From an uncultured Actinomycetota bacterium (lineage in GTDB: Bacteria; Actinomycetota; Actinomycetes; Actinomycetales; Microbacteriaceae), in assembly GCA_963716965.1 (NCBI GenBank), contig CAVQUZ010000001.1, forward strand, positions 524,061 through 588,060: 64,000 nt of DNA, written 5' to 3'. Position numbers and translations under genes: made by a program. Position 1 is the first letter of the stretch. The number at the start of each line of letters is the position of its first letter. The notes under the pieces are model-generated. The model ran no database searches and was not told the DNA's origin. It worked only from the letters and a program-made list of their open reading frames with translations. Shown one piece after another: positions 26,952 through 37,005 of this stretch.

Positions 26952-28367
26952 GTGGACTCACTTCTCATCGGCAGGCAACTCCGGCACCGCCGCAAGGCCG
27001 CCGGACTGACGCTCGACGAGGTGAGTGAGCGCAGCGGCCTGGCGCCGAGCCAGCTGTCGCAGTTCGAGAACGGCCGTCGCGAACCTCGCCTCTCGCAGCT
27101 GACGACCCTGGCGCAGGTGCTCGACGTGCCGCTGGTCGACCTGCTCGAAGCCGAACCCCCGGACGAGCGGAGTGCCCTGGAGATCGAGCTCGAGCGCGCG
27201 CAGGGGTCGCCGGCCTACCGTGCGCTCGCGCTGCCGCACGTGCCGCCGAGTCGTTCGCTGCCGATCGAGACCCTGCGCGCGCTCGTCGGTCTGCACCGGG
27301 AGTTGCATCGTCGCGCGAGCGAGGCGATCGCGACGCCGGAGGAGGCGCGGCGGGCGAACACCGAGCAGCGGCATGTGATGCGGGAGCGGGACAACCACCT
27401 TCCCGACCTCGAGGCGGCGGCCGCGGGTCTGCTCGCCGTGGTCGACCACCGCGGGGGTGCGCTCACGCACCACAACGTCGGGCTGATGGCCAGGCATCTG
27501 GGGTTCGAGATCATCCACGTCGGGGATCTGCCGCATTCGACGAGGTCGGTGACGGATCTCGAGCACGGCCGCATCTACCTGCCACCCGCATCCATCCCCG
27601 GCGGTCACGGACTGCGCGCGCTGGCGCTGCAGGCGATGGCGCACCGGGTCCTCGGGCACCGTGAGCCGTCGTCGTACGCCGAGTTCCTGAAGCAGCGCCT
27701 CGAGATCAACTACTTCGCGGCCGCCTGCCTGATGCCGGAGCAGGCATCGGTCGACTACCTCCTGGCCGCCAAGCAGCGCACGGACCTCGCGGTCGAGGAC
27801 TTCCGCGACGCCTTCGGCGTGACCCACGAAGCGGCCGCCCTGCGGCTGACCAACCTCGCCACCCGGCACCTCGGGCTGCACGTCCACTTCCTGCGCGTCG
27901 GCGGGGACGGTGCCATCTACAAGGCCTACGAGAACGACGGGCTGCCGCTGCCGACCGACGTGTCGGGCTCGGTCGAAGGCCAGCCCGTGCATCGGGCCTG
28001 GGCCGCCAGGGCCGCGTTCGAGCGCACGAACCGGACCACGGAGTACTACCAGATCACCGATACCCCGGCCGGGACGTTCTGGTGCTCGACCCAGACCGGC
28101 ACGTCGGCGACCGACGAATTCTCGATCACGGTCGGCGTGCGGTTCGCGGATTCGAAGTGGTTCCGCGGCCGCGAGACGACCGTCAGGCGCGATGCGGCGA
28201 CCCCGTCCCGACCCCCTGCGGACGCCTCACTGGCGGCGCACTGGCGGGGCAAGGCGTGGCCGTCGGCGAAGCTGCACGCGCACATCCTGTCGCCGCTGCC
28301 CACGGGCACCTTCCCCGGCGTGGACGACGCTGAGCTGTACCGATTCCTCGACACCCACGCCGACTGA
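26952..28367 (+). CDS. XRE-family HTH regulator with DUF2083/ImmA-like C-terminal domain (RamB/ScfR-like)
   Basis: The N-terminal Cro/C1 HTH ([56 protein letters not shown]) is followed by a metallopeptidase-like HExxH-containing region (AMAHRVLGH). 471 aa, matching the RamB (Rv0465c-type) architecture. Confidence 0.85.
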
Positions 28368-28492: not shown

Positions 28493-29074
28493 CTAGGCTC
28501 CGGCGCGCGGCTCGCCGTCGGTCACGAGCGCGCACATCGCGAGCACGCCGCGCCACAGCCGCTCGGCGAGGTCGTCGTCCTCGACCGGCCTGTCCTCCTC
28601 GATCAACTCCGCCAGCGCGGTGATCACCAGCGCCACCGCGCCGTAGGCGCGAGGCTTCGGCAGGCGGGCGGTCGCGATCTGACCGAGTTGCGCCCGGAAC
28701 TCGGACAGCCACCGGAACAGTTCGGGCTTGATCTCGGGGCGAACGATCACGAGTTCGTGGATGGCGATGCGCGCATCCGTGTAGCCGCTCGTCGTGCCGA
28801 TCACCTCGGCGACGAGTCGGCACAGCCGACGGACGACGTTCTCGTCGGACGGCGCGAGGAACGCAGCCCGATGCTCGTCGGTGATGGTGAGCTCGGGCAG
28901 ACCGAGCGCCGCCATGGCCTTGGACGGGAAGTAGTTGAAGAACGTCCGCGGCGAGACGACCGCCTGCGTGCAGATGTCCTCCACCGTGACCGCCTGCAGC
29001 CCCGACGCGAGCACGAGCCGTCTCGCGGCGAGATGGAGCGCCGATCTGGTCTGTTGCTTCTTGCGTCGCGCCAC
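28493..29074 (-). CDS. TetR/AcrR family transcriptional regulator
   Basis: 193 aa with an N-terminal HTH (GLQAVTVEDICTQAVVSPRTFFNYFPSKAMA). Confidence 0.85.
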   Translation of the reverse strand: MARRKKQQTRSALHLAARRLVLASGLQAVTVEDICTQAVVSPRTFFNYFPSKAMAALGLPELTITDEHRAAFLAPSDENVVRRLCRLVAEVIGTTSGYTDARIAIHELVIVRPEIKPELFRWLSEFRAQLGQIATARLPKPRAYGAVALVITALAELIEEDRPVEDDDLAERLWRGVLAMCALVTDGEPRAGA

Positions 29075-29173
29075 CCGATCGTGCGGGTGTCGAACGCCGG
29101 TTCGTGCAGTGTCTCGGTCATCAGCTGATCCGCCCTCGCGGTGCGGGGACGGATCCCCGCACCGCGTCGCCGG

Positions 29174-31399
29174 TTAGGACCTGGGGTCCGCCAGCCGCAC
29201 GGGCGCGGATCCGGCGGCCGGGGCCGCTGCGTTGGCCGAGACGCCCGCGCCGACGGGTACCTCGGGCTGTGCGTCCTCGGTCGCGGCGAGATGGGCCGCG
29301 GCCGCCTTGTCCGCCTGCTCCTGCAGGGCCGACACCCGCCGCAGCGGCGGCACCTTGAAGAACCAGGTGATGACGAAGGCGACGAGCACCACGAGCAGCG
29401 CGATCCAGTAGATCTGCACCGCCGAGGCGTTGAAGCCGGTGAGGAACGGCCTGGAGAGCCGCTTGTCGGCGCCGTTCAGGAACGAGGTGTCACTCGTCGC
29501 GCTGTTGGAGGACGCGGACGCCTTGGTGTTCGTGCCCTTCTTCAGCTGGGAGATGAGCGTCGGCGTGATCTGGTTCACGCAGTACGTGCGCTGGCCCGCG
29601 TTCGACCAATCGACCGCGAGTTCACCGTTCACCACGCTGGCGTGGGCCTTGGCCGCCGCCGACTTCAGCGCCGCCGCGGTCGCCTTCGTGGTCGCCGCGG
29701 GGATCTGCGACTGCGCTGCTGCCTCGGCCGCCGGAAGGGCCGCCGCGACCTGCTGTGCGATGACCGCGGAGGCCCCCGACGACGGCAGGACGCCGGCGGC
29801 GACCTGCGCGTCGACGGCGGCGGTCACCTTGGCGGTGACCGTCTTCGTGACGGCGGCGTTCACCTGGGTGGGCACGGCCTTCGCGACGGCGGTCTTCACC
29901 TGCGTGGTCGCCGTGTCGAGCTTCGCGGCGATGGTCGACTTGATCGGCGTCACGATCGGGGTCCACAGCTGCTTCATGATCGCCGCATTGTTCGAGGCGG
30001 CGGCGACCGACGGCGTGAGCGCGGCATCGAGGCCCGAGGTCAGCGTCGCCTTGTTCTCCGTGGCCGTCAGGATGTTGCCTGGCAGGGCCGCGAAGAGGAC
30101 CGACAGCAGGATGGCCGTGCCGAGCGTGCCGCCGATCTGGCGGAAGAAGGTCGACGCGCTGGTGGCGACGCCCATGTCCCGCGGCCCGACGGAGTTCTGG
30201 CTGGCGAGCGTCAGCGTCTGCATCAGCTGGCCGAGGCCGAGGCCGACCAGGAACATCCCGATCATCATGTACCAGAGCGGTTTGTCGATCGTGATCGTCG
30301 TCAGGAAGAAGAAGCCGATGGAGAGGATCGCCGTACCGGTCACCGGGAAGATGCGGTAGTGCCCGGTGCGGGAGACGATCTGGCCCGAGCCGATCGCCGC
30401 GATCATCAGACCGAGCATCATCGGCAGGGTGGCGAACCCGGATTCGGTCGCGGACAGTCCGAGCACGATCTGCAGGTAGAGCGGCAGGGTCAGCAGCGCG
30501 CCGAACATGCCGAAGCCGACGAGCACGCCGAGGATCGTCGCCGTCGAGAAGACCCGCGAGCGGAAGAGCTTCAGCGGGATGATCGCGTCGTCCTTCATGA
30601 TCGTCTCGGCGATGAAGAAGCCGATCAGACCGAGTCCGGAGATCACGTAGCAGGTGATGGACCCGGCCGATCCCCAGCCCCAGGTGCGGCCCTGCTCGGC
30701 GACCAGCAGCGCGGGCACGAGGGTCGCGATGACCGCGGCCGCGCCGAACCAGTCGATGCGCACGGACCGCGCGCCGAACCGCGGCAGGTGCAGGAACGCG
30801 AGCACCATCAGCAGTGCGACCGCACCGATCGGCACGTTGATCAGGAAGACCCAGCGCCATCCCGGGATGAACAGGATCTGGCTCGCGCCGGCGAAGAGAC
30901 CGCCGATGAGCGGGCCGATGACCGAGGAGATGCCGAAGACGGCCAGGAAGTAGCCCTGGTACTTGGCGCGCTCGCGGGGTGCGAGCATGTCGCCCATGAT
31001 CGCGAGCGGCAGCGACATGAGGCCGCCGGCGCCGATGCCCTGGATGGCGCGGAATCCGGCGAGCATCAGCATCGACGTCGAGAACGACGAGGCCAGCGAG
31101 CCGGCCACGAAGATCGTGATCGCGAAGATGTACAGCGGCCGACGGCCGAAGATGTCGGAGAGCTTGCCGTAGATCGGCGTCGCGATCGTCGAGGTGATGA
31201 GGTAGGCGGTGGTCACCCAGGCCTGCTGATCGAGGCCGTGCAGGTCGTCGCCGATGGTGCGGATCGCGGTGCCGACGATCGTCTGGTCGAGCGCGGAGAG
31301 GAACATGCCGGCCATCAGGCCGTAGATCACCAGCAATATCTGCCGGTGGGACATGACGGCCGAGTGGGGCTGCCCGGTCGTTGCTGTTGCGGTGGTCAC
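29174..31399 (-). CDS. MFS transporter, DHA2 (EmrB/QacA) 14-TM drug:H+ antiporter family, with a large repetitive insert before the last TM
   Basis: GTG at 31399 with a GAAGGA RBS. It has MFS motif A (GKLSDIFGRRPLY), 13 TMs, then a roughly 200-aa Ala/Thr/Val/Lys-rich repetitive region, a final TM (IYWIALLVVLVAFVITWFF) and an Ala-rich tail. Confidence 0.85.
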   Translation of the reverse strand: MTTATATTGQPHSAVMSHRQILLVIYGLMAGMFLSALDQTIVGTAIRTIGDDLHGLDQQAWVTTAYLITSTIATPIYGKLSDIFGRRPLYIFAITIFVAGSLASSFSTSMLMLAGFRAIQGIGAGGLMSLPLAIMGDMLAPRERAKYQGYFLAVFGISSVIGPLIGGLFAGASQILFIPGWRWVFLINVPIGAVALLMVLAFLHLPRFGARSVRIDWFGAAAVIATLVPALLVAEQGRTWGWGSAGSITCYVISGLGLIGFFIAETIMKDDAIIPLKLFRSRVFSTATILGVLVGFGMFGALLTLPLYLQIVLGLSATESGFATLPMMLGLMIAAIGSGQIVSRTGHYRIFPVTGTAILSIGFFFLTTITIDKPLWYMMIGMFLVGLGLGQLMQTLTLASQNSVGPRDMGVATSASTFFRQIGGTLGTAILLSVLFAALPGNILTATENKATLTSGLDAALTPSVAAASNNAAIMKQLWTPIVTPIKSTIAAKLDTATTQVKTAVAKAVPTQVNAAVTKTVTAKVTAAVDAQVAAGVLPSSGASAVIAQQVAAALPAAEAAAQSQIPAATTKATAAALKSAAAKAHASVVNGELAVDWSNAGQRTYCVNQITPTLISQLKKGTNTKASASSNSATSDTSFLNGADKRLSRPFLTGFNASAVQIYWIALLVVLVAFVITWFFKVPPLRRVSALQEQADKAAAAHLAATEDAQPEVPVGAGVSANAAAPAAGSAPVRLADPRS

Positions 31400-31465
31400 G
31401 TAGGGTCCTTCGAGAGTGGGCGCCGGCGCACGGAGGCGCCGACGCGCTCCCTGCGCGCCAATGCA

Positions 31466-31514
31466 TTGCAGTGACTGCAAATTTACGTCACGTGCAACCT
31501 TGCATCAACTGCAA
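31466..31514. promoter_or_regulatory. Two 15-bp palindromic sites, TTGCAGTGACTGCAA (perfect) and TTGCATCAACTGCAA (one mismatch), centres 34 bp apart; candidate repressor operator upstream of the MFS gene
   Basis: They sit 67-115 bp upstream of the MFS start in an AT-richer stretch (caaatttacgtcacgtgcaa), and additional TGCAA half-sites lie between them. Confidence 0.5.
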
Positions 31515-31573
31515 ATCGCGGCGTGTCGCTGGGACTTCCCTGTGTCGCGCCCTGGCCATGCGGGCGTCGAGCC

Positions 31574-32428
31574 CTAGGCCGCCGGCGACAGCGGAGCGGC
31601 ACCGTTGCGCGTCGCTGCTCCCTCCAGGTGCAGCAGCGCGTCGAGTGAGGCGGTCGATGCCGTCTCCTTGGCCAGGAAGGCGCCGAGTTCGCTGATCGTG
31701 CTCATCAGCGGTGCGGGGAACACCACCGTGGTGTTCTTGTCGACACCCAGTTCGACGAGCGTCTGCAGGTTGCGCAGTTGCAGCGCGAGCGGATGCGCCA
31801 TCATCGTGTCGCTCGCTGCCCCGAGCGCGGCGGCCGCGAGGGATTCGCCCTCGGCGGCGATGATCTTCGCGCGCTTCTCCCGCTCGGCCTCCGCCTGCCT
31901 GGCCATCGCGCGCTTCATGCTGTCGGGCAGCTGGATGTCCTTCAGTTCGACGAGGGTGACCTCGACACCCCAGGCGATCGTCGTCACGTCGAGGATCTCG
32001 CGGATTCCCGCGTTGATCACGTCGGTCTCCGAGAGGGTCTCGTCGAGCGTGTGCTGCCCGACCACCTTCCGCAGCGTGGTCTGGGCGATCTGATCGATGG
32101 CCGCGGTGACGTTCTCGATCGCGACGACCGACTTCACCGCATCCACCACGCGGAAGTACGCGACGGCCGATATGTCGACGCTCACGTTGTCCTTCGTGAT
32201 GATGCCCTGCGACTGGATCGGCATCGTGACGATGCGCATCGCCACCTTCGTGAGCCGGTCGATGACGGGGATGATGACCGCCAGTCCGGGCGCTTTGGTT
32301 CCCACCACCCGCCCCAAGCGGAAGAGCACTCCCGTCTCATACTGCGTGACCACGTGCAGCGACATGCCGGCGACGACGACCACCACGAGGACCAGCGCGG
32401 CGATCCCCAATACGAGACCGATCGTCAT
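31574..32428 (-). CDS. SPFH/band-7 (stomatin-like) membrane protein
   Basis: An N-terminal TM is followed by an SPFH domain (YETGVLFRLGRVVGTKAPGLAVIIPVIDRL ... ITKDNVSVDISAVAYFRVVD) and a coiled-coil Ala/Glu-rich segment (ARQAEAEREKRAKIIAAEGE). Confidence 0.85.
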   Translation of the reverse strand: MTIGLVLGIAALVLVVVVVAGMSLHVVTQYETGVLFRLGRVVGTKAPGLAVIIPVIDRLTKVAMRIVTMPIQSQGIITKDNVSVDISAVAYFRVVDAVKSVVAIENVTAAIDQIAQTTLRKVVGQHTLDETLSETDVINAGIREILDVTTIAWGVEVTLVELKDIQLPDSMKRAMARQAEAEREKRAKIIAAEGESLAAAALGAASDTMMAHPLALQLRNLQTLVELGVDKNTTVVFPAPLMSTISELGAFLAKETASTASLDALLHLEGAATRNGAAPLSPAA

Positions 32429-32686
32429 CGGCGTGCAGGGCCGAGCAGCGGACCGATGTCGAGCGGGTGCGCCGGCGTCGTGCCGATCCGGCTCGCCGGG
32501 TCGACGTCGATCGGAGCGCCAGGCAGATATCCGGTCCGGTCGATCGCCGGGTGGTGACCATGTCTGTCGTCCTGCATCGCCATGAGCGGAGCGTCCTGAT
32601 CTCGAGAGGCTCGAGCCGGCCGGTCGCCGTCATCATCACCACCCACCAGTACACCCGCGCGGCGCGGGCACGGCCAGGGCCGAAGG

Positions 32687-33562
32687 TCATGCAGCGATGT
32701 CGCCGTGCACGATCGCGGTCGGTGTCTGGATGTTCATCAGGGCGTCGTGGCACACCGCGCCGAGCGCACTCGGCGACCCCGCAGGACGCCGGGCCGCGCC
32801 AAGCACCAGCAGCTGGCCGCCGAGCGCGGTCGTGACGAGCGACCGTGCGATCGATCCGCGAACGGCGCGCACCTCGACCCGGGTCCCCGGGCTCGCGTCG
32901 AGCGCCGAAGCGCGGAACCGGCCGAGCAGGCGCTCCGCGCCCAGGAGACCGGACTCGCTCCGCGTCGCCTCCTCGGTCTCCGTCGCGGGGAGCGCCCAGA
33001 CGCGCACGATCAGCAGCGTCGTCCCCATGGACGCCGCCTCGCCGATCGCGAAGGCGAGCGCGGCCCGACCGGTCTCCGACTCGTCGGCCCCGAGCACGAC
33101 GGCCCCCTGCGCGGCCACCGGCAGCGCGGGGACGACGACGACCGGGCATCGGGCCGTCGCGGCGAGCTGCAGGCTGGTCGACCCGTAGACGGTGCCCTGG
33201 ATGAATCCGGACTTGTGCGTGCCGACGACGACCATCGCGGCGCGCGGCGTGGCTGCTCCCAGCGCCCACATCACACTGCCGTGCGTACGCCCCGTGCGAA
33301 CACGGATGGCCGAGTCGACCGAATGGACGAACAGGAGCTCGCGGGCGAGCAGCTCCCGCGCGCCGCGCGCCGGCCCGGGCAGTGTCCGGGTCCGCACGTG
33401 CAGCAGTGCGATCGGGGCGCCGGTGGCCGAAGCGTGGCGGGCGGCCCACCACACGGCGGCATGGGCGGATCCGGTGTCGGCGACACCGACGACGATCTCG
33501 GCGTCGTGGGAAGGCGCCGAAGCACGACCGAGCACGCGGTTCGGGTACGCGCGGGCGGTCAT
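32687..33562 (-). CDS. Tandem universal stress protein (two UspA domains)
   Basis: Two repeated Usp halves (IVVGVADTGSAHAAVWWAARHA ... VVVGTHKSGFIQGTVYGSTSLQLAATARCPVVVVP, and AVVLGADESETGRAALAFAIGEA ... LVLGAARRPAGSPSALGAVCHDALMNIQTPTAIV). The start could be 33604. Confidence 0.8.
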   Translation of the reverse strand: MTARAYPNRVLGRASAPSHDAEIVVGVADTGSAHAAVWWAARHASATGAPIALLHVRTRTLPGPARGARELLARELLFVHSVDSAIRVRTGRTHGSVMWALGAATPRAAMVVVGTHKSGFIQGTVYGSTSLQLAATARCPVVVVPALPVAAQGAVVLGADESETGRAALAFAIGEAASMGTTLLIVRVWALPATETEEATRSESGLLGAERLLGRFRASALDASPGTRVEVRAVRGSIARSLVTTALGGQLLVLGAARRPAGSPSALGAVCHDALMNIQTPTAIVHGDIAA

Positions 33563-33696
33563 CCGCCCAAGCTCGTCGCGCCCACGCCCTCCGGCTAGTG
33601 CCAAACGACCCGTCTCGCCTCTGCCATGCGCTCTACACTCGAAGAGCAGCCCTGACGACTTTTCCGCGGGACGGCTCCCGATGCGGAGGTGGTCCA

Positions 33697-35258
33697 GTGG
33701 ACGGCGTCGGTGGCGGGCCGCCCGGCGACGCGGTCTCGGCCGTCGCGGAGTCCGAGATCGACGCCGCGCTCGAAGGCGTCCTCGTCGCCGCCGATCGCCT
33801 GCTCGGTGCCGGATACAGCGCGGTCGCGGACATCACCGCTCCCGGTGGCGCCATGCGCGCGGCGCACCGGCACCTCGGCGCGGAGCACATCGCACTGCTC
33901 GAATCCGGCTTCCGACTCACGGGACTCATGGATCGGCTGCTCGACGCGACCGACCTCGAGGACCGAGCCGACCCGGGTGCCGCAGGCGACGACCCGCCGC
34001 TGCGGGTGATGGCGGTTCCGGTCAGGTGGGCGGGTGCGGCTCGGGGCGCTCTCGTCGTGGCTGCAGTCAGGTCGACCCCGTTCACGGAGGACGACGCGGC
34101 CGTGCTCGGCTCTCTGGCGGCGACCGCGGCGGTCGCGTTGGGCTACGCCGAACTGCGCGCCGCCGCACGCCATCGACAGGCGTGGGCCGATGCATCGGCC
34201 GAGACGTCGGCTGCGCTGCTCACCGGCGAGCTCGAGGACCCGGCGGGATTCCTCGTGGCACGCCTCCGCGCCGTCGCCGACGACGCGTACGCGTCCGTCA
34301 TGCGTGTCAGCGACGGCCGGCTCGGCGTCGCGGGCGTCATAGGGCTGGACGGTCTCGGCGTAGGCGACGAGGTGGCCCTCAGGGATTCCGTGGCGGGCAT
34401 CGTCCTCGAGTCGCGACAGCCCAGACGCACCGATGCCGGGTCCCTCACGTCGACGGCCACCGAAGGTGCCGGGGGCCCCCTGATGGTCGCGCCGATGCGC
34501 TCCTCGGAGGGGGTGATCGGTGTGGTGGGGCTGGGACGGCTCGCCGGCGCCCCGCGCTACTCGACCGTCGAGCTCGGGCACTTCGCCGACTTCGTGGACC
34601 ATGCCACCGTCGCGCTGCTCCTGGCGGAGGCGAGGGCGGACCGGGACCGTGGCCTGCTGCTCGAGGATCGCGCCCGCATCGCCCGCGATCTGCACGACAC
34701 CGTCATCCAGCAGTTGTTCGCCGCCGGTCTCGAATTGCGGGCGACCGCCGCGGACGTGGCGGATGCACGGGTGCAGGCCGGCGTCCGGCACACGGTGACG
34801 CTCATCGACGCGTCCATCAGCCGGATCCGGACGGCGGTGCTCGCGATCTCGGCGGATCCAGCACACGGGTCCCTCCGGCACCGGATCCTGGACATCGTGA
34901 GCGACCTGCGGCGCGAGTTCGCCGAGCCCCCCGAGCTCCGGTTCGAGGGACCGATCGAACTCGTCTCGGACGGCGGCCTGGACGACGACCTCGTCGCGGT
35001 GGTGCGGGAGGCGTTGACCAACGTCGCACGGCACGCCGCTGCCGCGCGCACCGGTGTCCGCATCGCGGTCGTCGGGGAGCGGATCCGCGTGGAGGTGTGG
35101 GACGACGGGCGGGGTATGCCGTCACGACCGGAGCGGCGTGGGCTCGCGAACCTCGCCGAACGCGCGGCGCACCGCGGCGGCACATTCACCGTCGACAGCG
35201 CGTCGGGCACGACCCGTGCGGGTGGACCGTGCCGCACGGCACTGCGAGTGCGGCGTGA
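33697..35258 (+). CDS. Sensor histidine kinase with N-terminal GAF domain(s), HisKA_3 dimerisation and HATPase_c (DevS/DosS / NarX-like); 3' end ambiguous
   Basis: GTG after a GGAGG box. A GAF region is followed by HisKA_3 (RARIARDLHDTVIQQLFAAGLEL with the phospho-His) and HATPase (LVAVVREALTNVARHA ... VWDDGRGMP ... GLANLAERAAHRGGTFTVDSASG). The reading frame has no stop until 36351. A TGA in frame 0 overlaps the RR start as GTGA, implying a local frame problem. Confidence 0.7.
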
Positions 35259-35907
35259 GCGCGCCGATCCGCGTCTTCCTCGTCGACGACCACGAGCTCG
35301 TCCGCCGGGGCATCGCGTCGTTCCTCAGATCGGCTCCCGACATCGTCATCGTCGGCGAGGCGTCGACCGGAGCCCAGGCCACGAGCCGGATCGGCGTCAT
35401 GCTGCCCGACGTCGTCCTGCTCGACGTTCGGCTTCCCGATCGCAGCGGTATCGACGTGTGCCGAGAGCTCAAAGTGCGTTCGCCGCAGGTCGCCTGCATC
35501 ATCGTCACGGCATACGACGACGACGCCGCGATCCTCGCCGCGGTCGTGGCAGGCGCCGCGGGTTACGTGCGGAAGGACGTGGCCGGCAGTGCCCTCGTGG
35601 ACGGTATCCGCGCAGCGGCCGCCGGGCGCTCGCTGCTGGACGCGGCCCTCGTCGAACGCGTCAATCGACAGCTGCGGGACGCACGCCTCGGCCACGCGCG
35701 TCTCGCGGACCTCAGCCGACGAGAGGCCGAGGTGCTCGGGCTGATCGCGGACGGGCTGACGAATCGCGAGATCGCCCGCACGATGTCCCTCGCCGAGAAG
35801 ACGGTGAAGAACTACGTGTCCAGCCTGCTCTCGAAGCTCGGCCTGCGGACCCGGACCCAGGCGGCCGTGCTGCGCACGACGGCGTCGGCGACCGACAGCC
35901 CGCCGGA

Positions 35908-35914
<7 letters not shown>
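35255..35914 (+). CDS. LuxR/NarL-family response regulator (REC + HTH)
   Basis: The REC domain (IRVFLVDDHELVRRGIASFLRS ... VVLLDVRLPDRSG) is followed by a LuxR HTH (LSRREAEVLGLIADGLTNREIARTMSLAEKTVKNYVSSLLSKLG). Confidence 0.9.

Positions 35915-37005
<1,091 letters not shown>

Follow-up and report, generated by a model that had tools for sequence, protein, structure and literature searches.

In the window analysed here, a 64,000-nucleotide (64 kb) stretch of a Microbacteriaceae genome (contig CAVQUZ010000001.1), a cluster of 15-bp palindromes lies upstream of a gene for a DHA2-type efflux pump of the major facilitator superfamily (MFS), which is followed on the same strand by a gene for a TetR-family regulator. 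The arrangement of these palindromes in the window and at orthologous loci strongly supports their identification as putative operators of a TetR-family repressor, conserved far beyond chance. We consider it highly probable that they form an operator array in the pump promoter and that the promoter is repressed by the TetR protein encoded downstream, in what is probably an autoregulated operon.

The plus strand at positions 31460-31519 reads aatgcaTTGCAGTGACTGCAAatTTACGTCACGTGCAAccTTGCATCAACTGCAAatcgc. Within it, the proximal operator (31466..31480, minus strand) is a perfect 6-3-6 inverted repeat (TTGCAGTGACTGCAA on the plus strand, TTGCAG-TGA-CTGCAA; TTGCAGTCACTGCAA on the pump strand), and the distal operator (31500..31514, minus strand; TTGCATCAACTGCAA on the plus strand, TTGCAT-CAA-CTGCAA; TTGCAGTTGATGCAA on the pump strand) is one position off a perfect palindrome. 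This is the pair that a preceding sequence-only reading had described, with starts 34 bp apart and 19 bp separating the two sites, and both the spacing and the degree of symmetry reported there are seen in the sequence. That reading also noted extra TGCAA half-sites between the palindromes; one is present at 31493-31497, but it belongs to a whole third 15-mer that had been overlooked. This middle, degenerate operator (31483..31497, minus strand; TTACGTCACGTGCAA on the plus strand, TTGCACGTGACGTAA on the pump strand) is found when two mismatches are allowed, and lies exactly 17 bp from either neighbour. The proposal that the two palindromes are helically phased has to be replaced, since 34 bp corresponds to 3.2 turns and the sites are not well phased; with the middle site, the true repeat unit is 17 bp.

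The array thus consists of three 15-mers with a 17-bp period, 49 bp in all, and a repeat search returned a 17-nt direct repeat with 34-bp spacing across it. Read on the pump strand, the order is TTGCAGTTGATGCAA-GG-TTGCACGTGACGTAA-AT-TTGCAGTCACTGCAA, giving six alternating TTGCA/TGCAA-type half-sites with 5-2-5-2-5 spacing. At the junction of the middle and distal 15-mers, this alternation creates a 12-bp perfect palindrome, TGCAA-GG-TTGCA (TGCAAGGTTGCA, 31493..31504), which occurs once in the window. Exact matches to TTGCA-N5-TGCAA number two in the window, both in the array, and none appeared in 100 dinucleotide-preserving shuffles. The array lies 67-115 bp 5' of the pump start codon (GTG, 31399-31397, minus strand) and, as had been pointed out before, in an AT-rich stretch: the 60 bp from 31460 to 31519 have a GC content of 45%, against 60-78% in the flanks. 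TetR-family operators are marked by an inverted repeat of about 13-17 bp per dimer or by a composite of 28-32 bp, and the array shows this hallmark in a perfect 6-3-6 repeat, two imperfect copies and a conserved 32-bp composite, described below.

The pump gene (29174..31399, minus strand) encodes 741 amino acids from a GTG start at 31399, preceded by a ribosome-binding site, GAAGGA, at 31411-31406. Its product is of the EmrB/QacA type, matching Pfam MFS_1 (E = 3e-53) and the NCBIfam models efflux_EmrB, OtrB and Tcr3, and is identical to the public protein P0001 (741 amino acids), including the start. It is longer than typical DHA2 pumps, at about 740 versus about 500 amino acids, owing to an insertion of about 200 residues (approximately residues 455-665) between predicted membrane helices 13 and 14. 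The insertion is rich in Ala, Thr, Val and Lys and has many invariant positions across Micrococcales homologues.

The regulator gene (28493..29074, minus strand; GTG start at 29074) encodes a 193-residue protein matching Pfam TetR_N (E = 1.6e-8). The sequence-only reading had described it as convergent with the pump gene, which is wrong: both lie on the minus strand, with the regulator gene 99 nt 3' of the pump stop codon, and on account of the shared strand and this short gap the two genes look like an operon. An AlphaFold model, built with 38 homologues in the alignment, is all-helical and adopts the ten-helix TetR fold (predicted local distance difference test score, pLDDT, 93). The nearest solved structures are SCO3201 (23-26% identity), SCO0337 and MftR, and no close characterised relative was found among solved structures. 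The public annotation of the regulator, P0121 (173 amino acids), begins 20 codons too late and drops helix α1 of the DNA-binding domain; the 193-residue form is supported by the model, in which residues 2-24 form a confident helix α1, and by the alignment, in which K5, K6, T9 and A17 are invariant. The 38 homologues also share two invariant cysteines, C35, which lies in the helix-turn-helix, and C85.

Judged by its protein homologues, the source organism is close to Amnibacterium (Microbacteriaceae). To examine conservation, 80 pump loci were chosen from species-representative genomes by alignment of pump homologues (pump identity 63-77%). They come mainly from Micrococcales, with a few other actinobacteria, and include Amnibacterium, Curtobacterium, Gryllotalpicola, Leifsonia, Frondihabitans, Humibacter, Sinomonas, Arthrobacter, Brachybacterium and Raineyella, among others. 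At least one site with no more than one mismatch lies within 400 bp 5' of the pump gene at 76 of the 80 loci. Across all loci, the 300-bp upstream stretches (23.9 kb in total) hold 99 sites at this threshold, 40 of them exact, while the remaining 905 kb hold two, none exact, so that the motif is enriched about 1900-fold upstream of the pump. The motif is therefore far above background frequency and clearly conserved at orthologous promoters, and the idea of TetR-type operators, put forward from the window alone, gains considerable support.

Alignment of 75 distinct promoters, anchored on the proximal site, gave the pump-strand consensus TTGC(A/G)-N5-TGTAA-NN-TTGCA-N5-(T/C)GCAA, with about 2 bits of information at the half-sites and about 0 in the flanks. 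The conserved core, TTGCA-N5-TGTAA-N2-TTGCA-N5-TGCAA, spans 32 bp and has an overall dyad. In the window it corresponds to the middle and proximal sites (TTGCACGTGACGTAA-AT-TTGCAGTCACTGCAA), and the distal palindrome is an extra unit. Extra units also occur in some other lineages, as in Humibacter at 28 and 34 bp; the position equivalent to the distal site reads cTGCAGTTGACGCAg at locus L048 and TTGCACTTGACGCAg at L049. The proximal site is the block of highest information, and its 15-mer is found unchanged 5' of the orthologous pumps at L007 and L202. At the middle site, the half-site that pairs with TTGC(A/G) is TGTAA in 62 of the 75 promoters and CGTAA in three, and is never TGCAA.

The spacings of the 12-mer and the 15-mer are fixed together across the compared promoters. 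Because the 15-mer TTGCA-N5-TGCAA is a perfect palindrome in 40 sites, we favour it, rather than the 12-mer TGCAA-N2-TTGCA, as the unit that a dimer would read. Across the 75 promoters the letters of the half-sites are fixed while those of the five central positions are unconstrained, a pattern typical of a dimeric protein that reads a specific DNA sequence and not of a hairpin. Each 15-mer could in principle fold as a 6-bp stem with a 3-nt loop and would be transcribed if the start lay upstream, so the palindromes might work at the RNA level, as leader hairpins that attenuate transcription or affect the stability of the pump mRNA. This seems extremely unlikely. No compensatory variation is seen: the arms are fixed, and positions 6 and 10 are complementary in 35 of the 75 promoters and positions 7 and 9 in 21. 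Moreover, the predicted transcription start falls inside the proximal site. With no match in Rfam, no unusual folding of the 5' untranslated region (z = -1.9) and no covariation, a structured RNA leader was rejected.

The array coincides with a predicted promoter, TTGATG-17-TAAATT, on the minus strand. The predicted -35 hexamer, TTGATG (31503..31508), lies inside the distal operator, and a 17-nt spacer separates it from the predicted -10 hexamer, TAAATT (31480..31485), whose final T is shared with the proximal operator as its first base. The -10 hexamer is of the TANNNT type that is typical of actinobacteria. In the orthologues, TGTAA followed by NN and T places TAAnnT at the same position; the replacement of TGCAA by TGTAA thus breaks the symmetry of the array and creates a -10 pattern. 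Corresponding hexamers can be read in other lineages, as TTGACG-16-TAATAT at L048 (Pseudolysinimonas) and as TGGACA-16-TAATCT in one Amnibacterium group (L003, L008, L201). This conservation supports the predicted promoter. The layout would be of the repressor type, with the distal site over the -35, the middle site over the spacer and -10, and the proximal site at about -6 to +9. A MerR-type activator site in an over-long spacer was considered and discarded, the spacers being 16-17 nt and no MerR gene lying nearby.

Overlap with a promoter also raises the question of whether the conserved sequence is the core promoter of a housekeeping pump and nothing else, with incidental palindromes and no repressor. 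In favour of this, nearly all orthologues have a TAAnnT that agrees with the -10 consensus of actinobacteria, and the distal site holds the -35-like TTGATG. The best-conserved block, however, is TTGCA-N5-TGCAA, with about 2 bits at ten positions, and it sits 3' of the -10, a region in which promoters are little constrained in sequence. The -35 regions vary by lineage (TGGACA, TTGACG, GGAAT) while the palindrome stays constant, a perfect dyad is present in 40 sites, and at two loci described below (L090 and L104) the whole 30-32 bp form one long palindrome. We therefore regard this explanation as very improbable.

As a separate observation, at five loci (L004, L006, L009, L010 and L018) the core is embedded in GGAAT-N18/19-GTTG upstream of the pump, a pattern that does not occur in the window. 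It resembles the promoter pattern of the thiol-stress sigma factors sigma-H/sigma-R, of the extracytoplasmic function (ECF) type, and hints that the pump is stress-induced in those lineages.

As to the protein that binds the array, all-against-all clustering of flanking open reading frames (ORFs) identified the TetR gene as the sole conserved neighbour of the pump, directly downstream and on the same strand at 45 of the 80 loci, at which pump, TetR and motif are found together. The loci fall cleanly into two syntenic groups: group A, to which the window belongs, has the pump followed by TetR, and in group B the pump adjoins a DNA methyltransferase gene. The other DNA-binding candidate near the pump in the window is the product of a gene convergent on TetR (26952-28367, plus strand), a 471-residue protein with an XRE-type helix-turn-helix (HTH_3, E = 5e-14) and an M78 (IrrE-like) peptidase-like region. 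Motifs of the TTTGCAAA type are the targets of RamB and PrpR regulators, and this protein, encoded within 3 kb of the pump, has a weak NCBIfam hit to RamB, so that it might bind the TGCAA-containing sites. The hit scores 30 bits against a cut-off of 700, and similarity to the RamB and ClgR models is weak throughout. A homologue is present at none of the 80 loci that keep the motif, on which ground we rejected it as the binder, and its involvement would be most surprising.

Further evidence for TetR comes from loci with the opposite gene order. A search of metagenomes with the core TGTAANNTTGCANNNNNTGCAA gave 120 hits, mostly low-GC chance matches (median GC 0.40), and was for that reason rejected as a definition of the regulon; the only informative hits were L090, L104 and L159. 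At L090 and L104 (GC 0.64-0.65), the array stands directly before a gene for a TetR homologue with 43% identity over the DNA-binding domain, which overlaps a downstream DHA2 pump gene, and the whole 30-32 bp are one long palindrome. The TetR of L104 is from Corynebacterium godavarianum, and four further Corynebacterium operons with TetR followed by an MFS gene, located beside fumarase (L203-L206), all have half-sites of the TTGCA/TGCAA type, again spaced 5-2-5, within 60 nt 5' of the TetR start. Since the array heads the operon in both the pump-first and the TetR-first order, it appears to travel with this TetR subfamily. The core of the recognition helix, RTFFNY, is identical in all 48 TetR proteins compared, residue seven being F in 42 and Y, V or M in six, and this invariant helix matches the invariant half-site. 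On the strength of the adjoining TetR gene at 45 loci and of the arrays that head TetR-then-pump operons, the assignment of the array to the 28493-29074 product, first suggested in the sequence-only reading, is very likely, though not proven.

In L203-L206 and L104 the array extends as far as, or into, the annotated TetR start, with the ATG lying inside TGCAA at L203; either these transcripts are leaderless or the TetR start codons have been annotated wrongly. In the same five operons the TetR ORF shares 7-28 nt with the pump ORF.

Group B shows that the site is not confined to TetR-linked pumps. At its 35 loci, where the pump adjoins an N6/N4 DNA methyltransferase gene, the core is kept, with the last half-site usually CGCAA. 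Genes near these pumps encode, by Pfam, adenylate kinase, DNA methyltransferase, hydrolases, glutathione peroxidase and similar proteins. Both groups occur together in at least six Curtobacterium genomes, and some Amnibacterium and Gryllotalpicola genomes appear in group B only. The sequence-only reading treated the site as a local feature, but its core is kept at two pump loci that are old paralogues. It is plausible that one TetR acts on both group A and group B promoters.

The loci of the second paralogous pump include L002, L003, L007, L008, L011, L016, L017, L020 and L022, among others, as well as L201. Amnibacterium loci of group B also hold adenylate kinase and acyl-CoA oxidase genes beside the pump.

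A broader proposal can be made from these comparisons, which we put forward tentatively and consider possible rather than probable. An efflux regulon of ancient origin in actinobacteria may be controlled by a TetR subfamily that is defined by RTFFNY and two invariant cysteines and acts through the composite operator TTGCA-N5-TGTAA-N2-TTGCA-N5-TGCAA; the regulon would include, in trans, a paralogous pump that lacks its own regulator. One half-site of this operator would serve as the -10, the 12-mer described for the Corynebacterium regulator AtsR (see below) would be the centre of the larger array, and redox sensing could possibly be a general property of the subfamily.

The region between pump and TetR bears on how the regulator itself is expressed. 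No copy of the motif with up to two mismatches is present in this gap, that is, before the TetR gene in the window. Immediately 3' of the pump stop codon lies a GC-rich hairpin with 20-nt arms, a 4-nt loop and no T-tract (29130..29173, minus strand). Of 37 group A gaps inspected, about 20 carry a strong GC-rich hairpin (-34 to -56 kcal/mol) after the pump stop (among them L001, L013, L014, L018, L019, L025, L035, L043-L045, L052, L054, L056, L059, L066, L068 and L069). Often fewer than 25 nt separate the hairpin from the TetR start, and an AGGAG-like ribosome-binding site follows it closely. At many loci this leaves no room for a separate TetR promoter. Most likely, TetR is transcribed by read-through from the operator-controlled promoter, which would place it under negative autoregulation. 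The hairpin may act as a partial terminator or an mRNA stabiliser that sets the ratio of pump to repressor. Its sequence varies by lineage.

We propose a mechanism in which dimers of the 28493-29074 product occupy the sites of the array. The bound array would cover the -35, the spacer, the -10 and the transcription start, excluding RNA polymerase, and a ligand or stress signal would release the repressor, allowing transcription of the pump. Read-through of the post-pump hairpin would then yield TetR transcript as well, closing a negative feedback loop.

The closest published parallel is AtsR (NCgl0886) of Corynebacterium glutamicum, a 193-residue TetR protein that is encoded after the pump gene ncgl0887 in one operon and represses it (PMC9210681). 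AtsR binds a 29-bp fragment at -116 to -88, dependent on the palindrome TGCAAAATTGCA (consensus TGCAA-N2-TTGCA), as shown by gel shift and by half-site mutations that abolish binding; binding is lost on oxidation of Cys123 and Cys187 (PMC9210681). A literature search on the motif strings returned this paper as the single relevant match. The regulator in the window is likewise a 193-residue TetR whose gene comes next after that of an efflux pump, in the same orientation, and the half-sites are the same: the exact TGCAA-N2-TTGCA form is found at 31493-31504, and TGTAA-NN-TTGCA forms the centre of the orthologue array. In both systems the operator lies about 90-115 bp 5' of the pump start codon. 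The two differ in that AtsR was assigned one 12-bp site and one dimer, whereas the window and its orthologues have an array of four to six half-sites in which the 15-mer is best conserved. AtsR senses oxidants through Cys123 and Cys187, and the TetR of the window has Cys35, Cys85 and a third cysteine near residue 180, of which two are invariant in the family. Redox sensing by cysteine oxidation, by analogy with AtsR, is conceivable.

Long operators bound by two TetR dimers are known for CgmR (32 bp) and QacR/IR1 (28 bp) (PMC9210681). The core of the window type is similar in its 32-bp length, its overall dyad and its overlap with a predicted multidrug pump promoter, and differs in its unrelated half-sites and, in the window, in a third unit that brings the array to 49 bp. 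The arrangement can also be compared with the Tn10 TetR system, in which the tandem operators tetO1 and tetO2 lie in the intergenic region shared by the divergent tetR and tetA genes. There, as in the window, two or more palindromes of about 15 bp, each presumably occupied by a single dimer, lie side by side over the promoter (predicted, in the window) of an MFS efflux gene, and the repressor is autoregulated, in the window probably so; the regulator in the window is instead downstream and co-directional, and the sequences and inducer are unrelated. The best match in both sequence (E = 2e-8, over the DNA-binding domain) and fold is SCO3201 of Streptomyces coelicolor (PDB entries 4cgr, 5efy and 7pt0), but at 23-26% identity, and SCO3201 has no known link to the operator or pump described here.

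Several points weigh against repression by the adjacent, autoregulated TetR. The promoter hexamers were read by eye and score 8/12 against the sigma-70 consensus, below the 9/12 threshold of our scan, which did not call them. The hairpin in the 99-nt gap could stop transcription completely, and TetR would then be expressed from a promoter of its own. No regulator gene was found by Pfam within 3.5 kb of the group B pumps; the binder there must act in trans and may in principle be a different protein. The partner pump of AtsR is described as a member of the RND superfamily, and the pump in the window is a DHA2 MFS protein. The system in the window may work like AtsR, but membership is not established, AtsR having been compared through its published description. 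C. glutamicum was not among the organisms from which TetR homologues were retrieved, and the Corynebacterium operons that were recovered lie at a different locus.

As an alternative, the operator could be genuine but bound by another trans-acting regulator, encoded elsewhere, with the adjacent TetR controlling something else or fine-tuning expression. Group B, which keeps TGTAA-NN-TTGCA-N5-CGCAA or TGCAA with no regulator nearby, and the lack of a motif copy in the pump-TetR gap would fit this explanation. However, the motif is all but missing in the other 905 kb and is not seen elsewhere in the window, which speaks against a broad regulon, and TetR is the only conserved neighbour of the pump, the motif shifting to the front of TetR when the gene order is reversed. 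The invariant RTFFNY core, and the experimental precedent of a TetR protein with the same half-site (PMC9210681), also speak for the adjacent gene product. We consider a different binder unlikely, and retain the encoded TetR as the candidate repressor.

Upstream of the array, the window contains an SPFH/Band-7 gene (31574-32428, minus strand), directly adjacent, a gene for a tandem-domain universal stress protein (Usp; 32687-33604, minus strand) and a gene for a histidine kinase with GAF and HisKA_3 domains (within 33382-36351, plus strand). This cluster, 31574-36351, is reminiscent of DosS/DevS-type dormancy loci.

The proposed switch is of a well-known type, standard TetR-repressed efflux, of which the operator array and the pump-TetR pair would be a new example; the value lies in annotation and possibly in an inducible promoter part, and not in new biology. 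No regulation of this DHA2 pump is described in the literature searched. For a pump found in almost all Microbacteriaceae and Micrococcaceae, the plant-associated genera Curtobacterium and Leifsonia among them, our analysis supplies a well-delimited candidate operator and a candidate repressor. Added interest comes from the half-site embedded in the predicted -10, from the operator kept at the paralogous pump without a regulator, and from the likely extension of the AtsR site. The comparative data suggest that the published 12-bp AtsR site may belong to a longer array in which half-sites alternate, and that a single repressor may govern two paralogous pumps.

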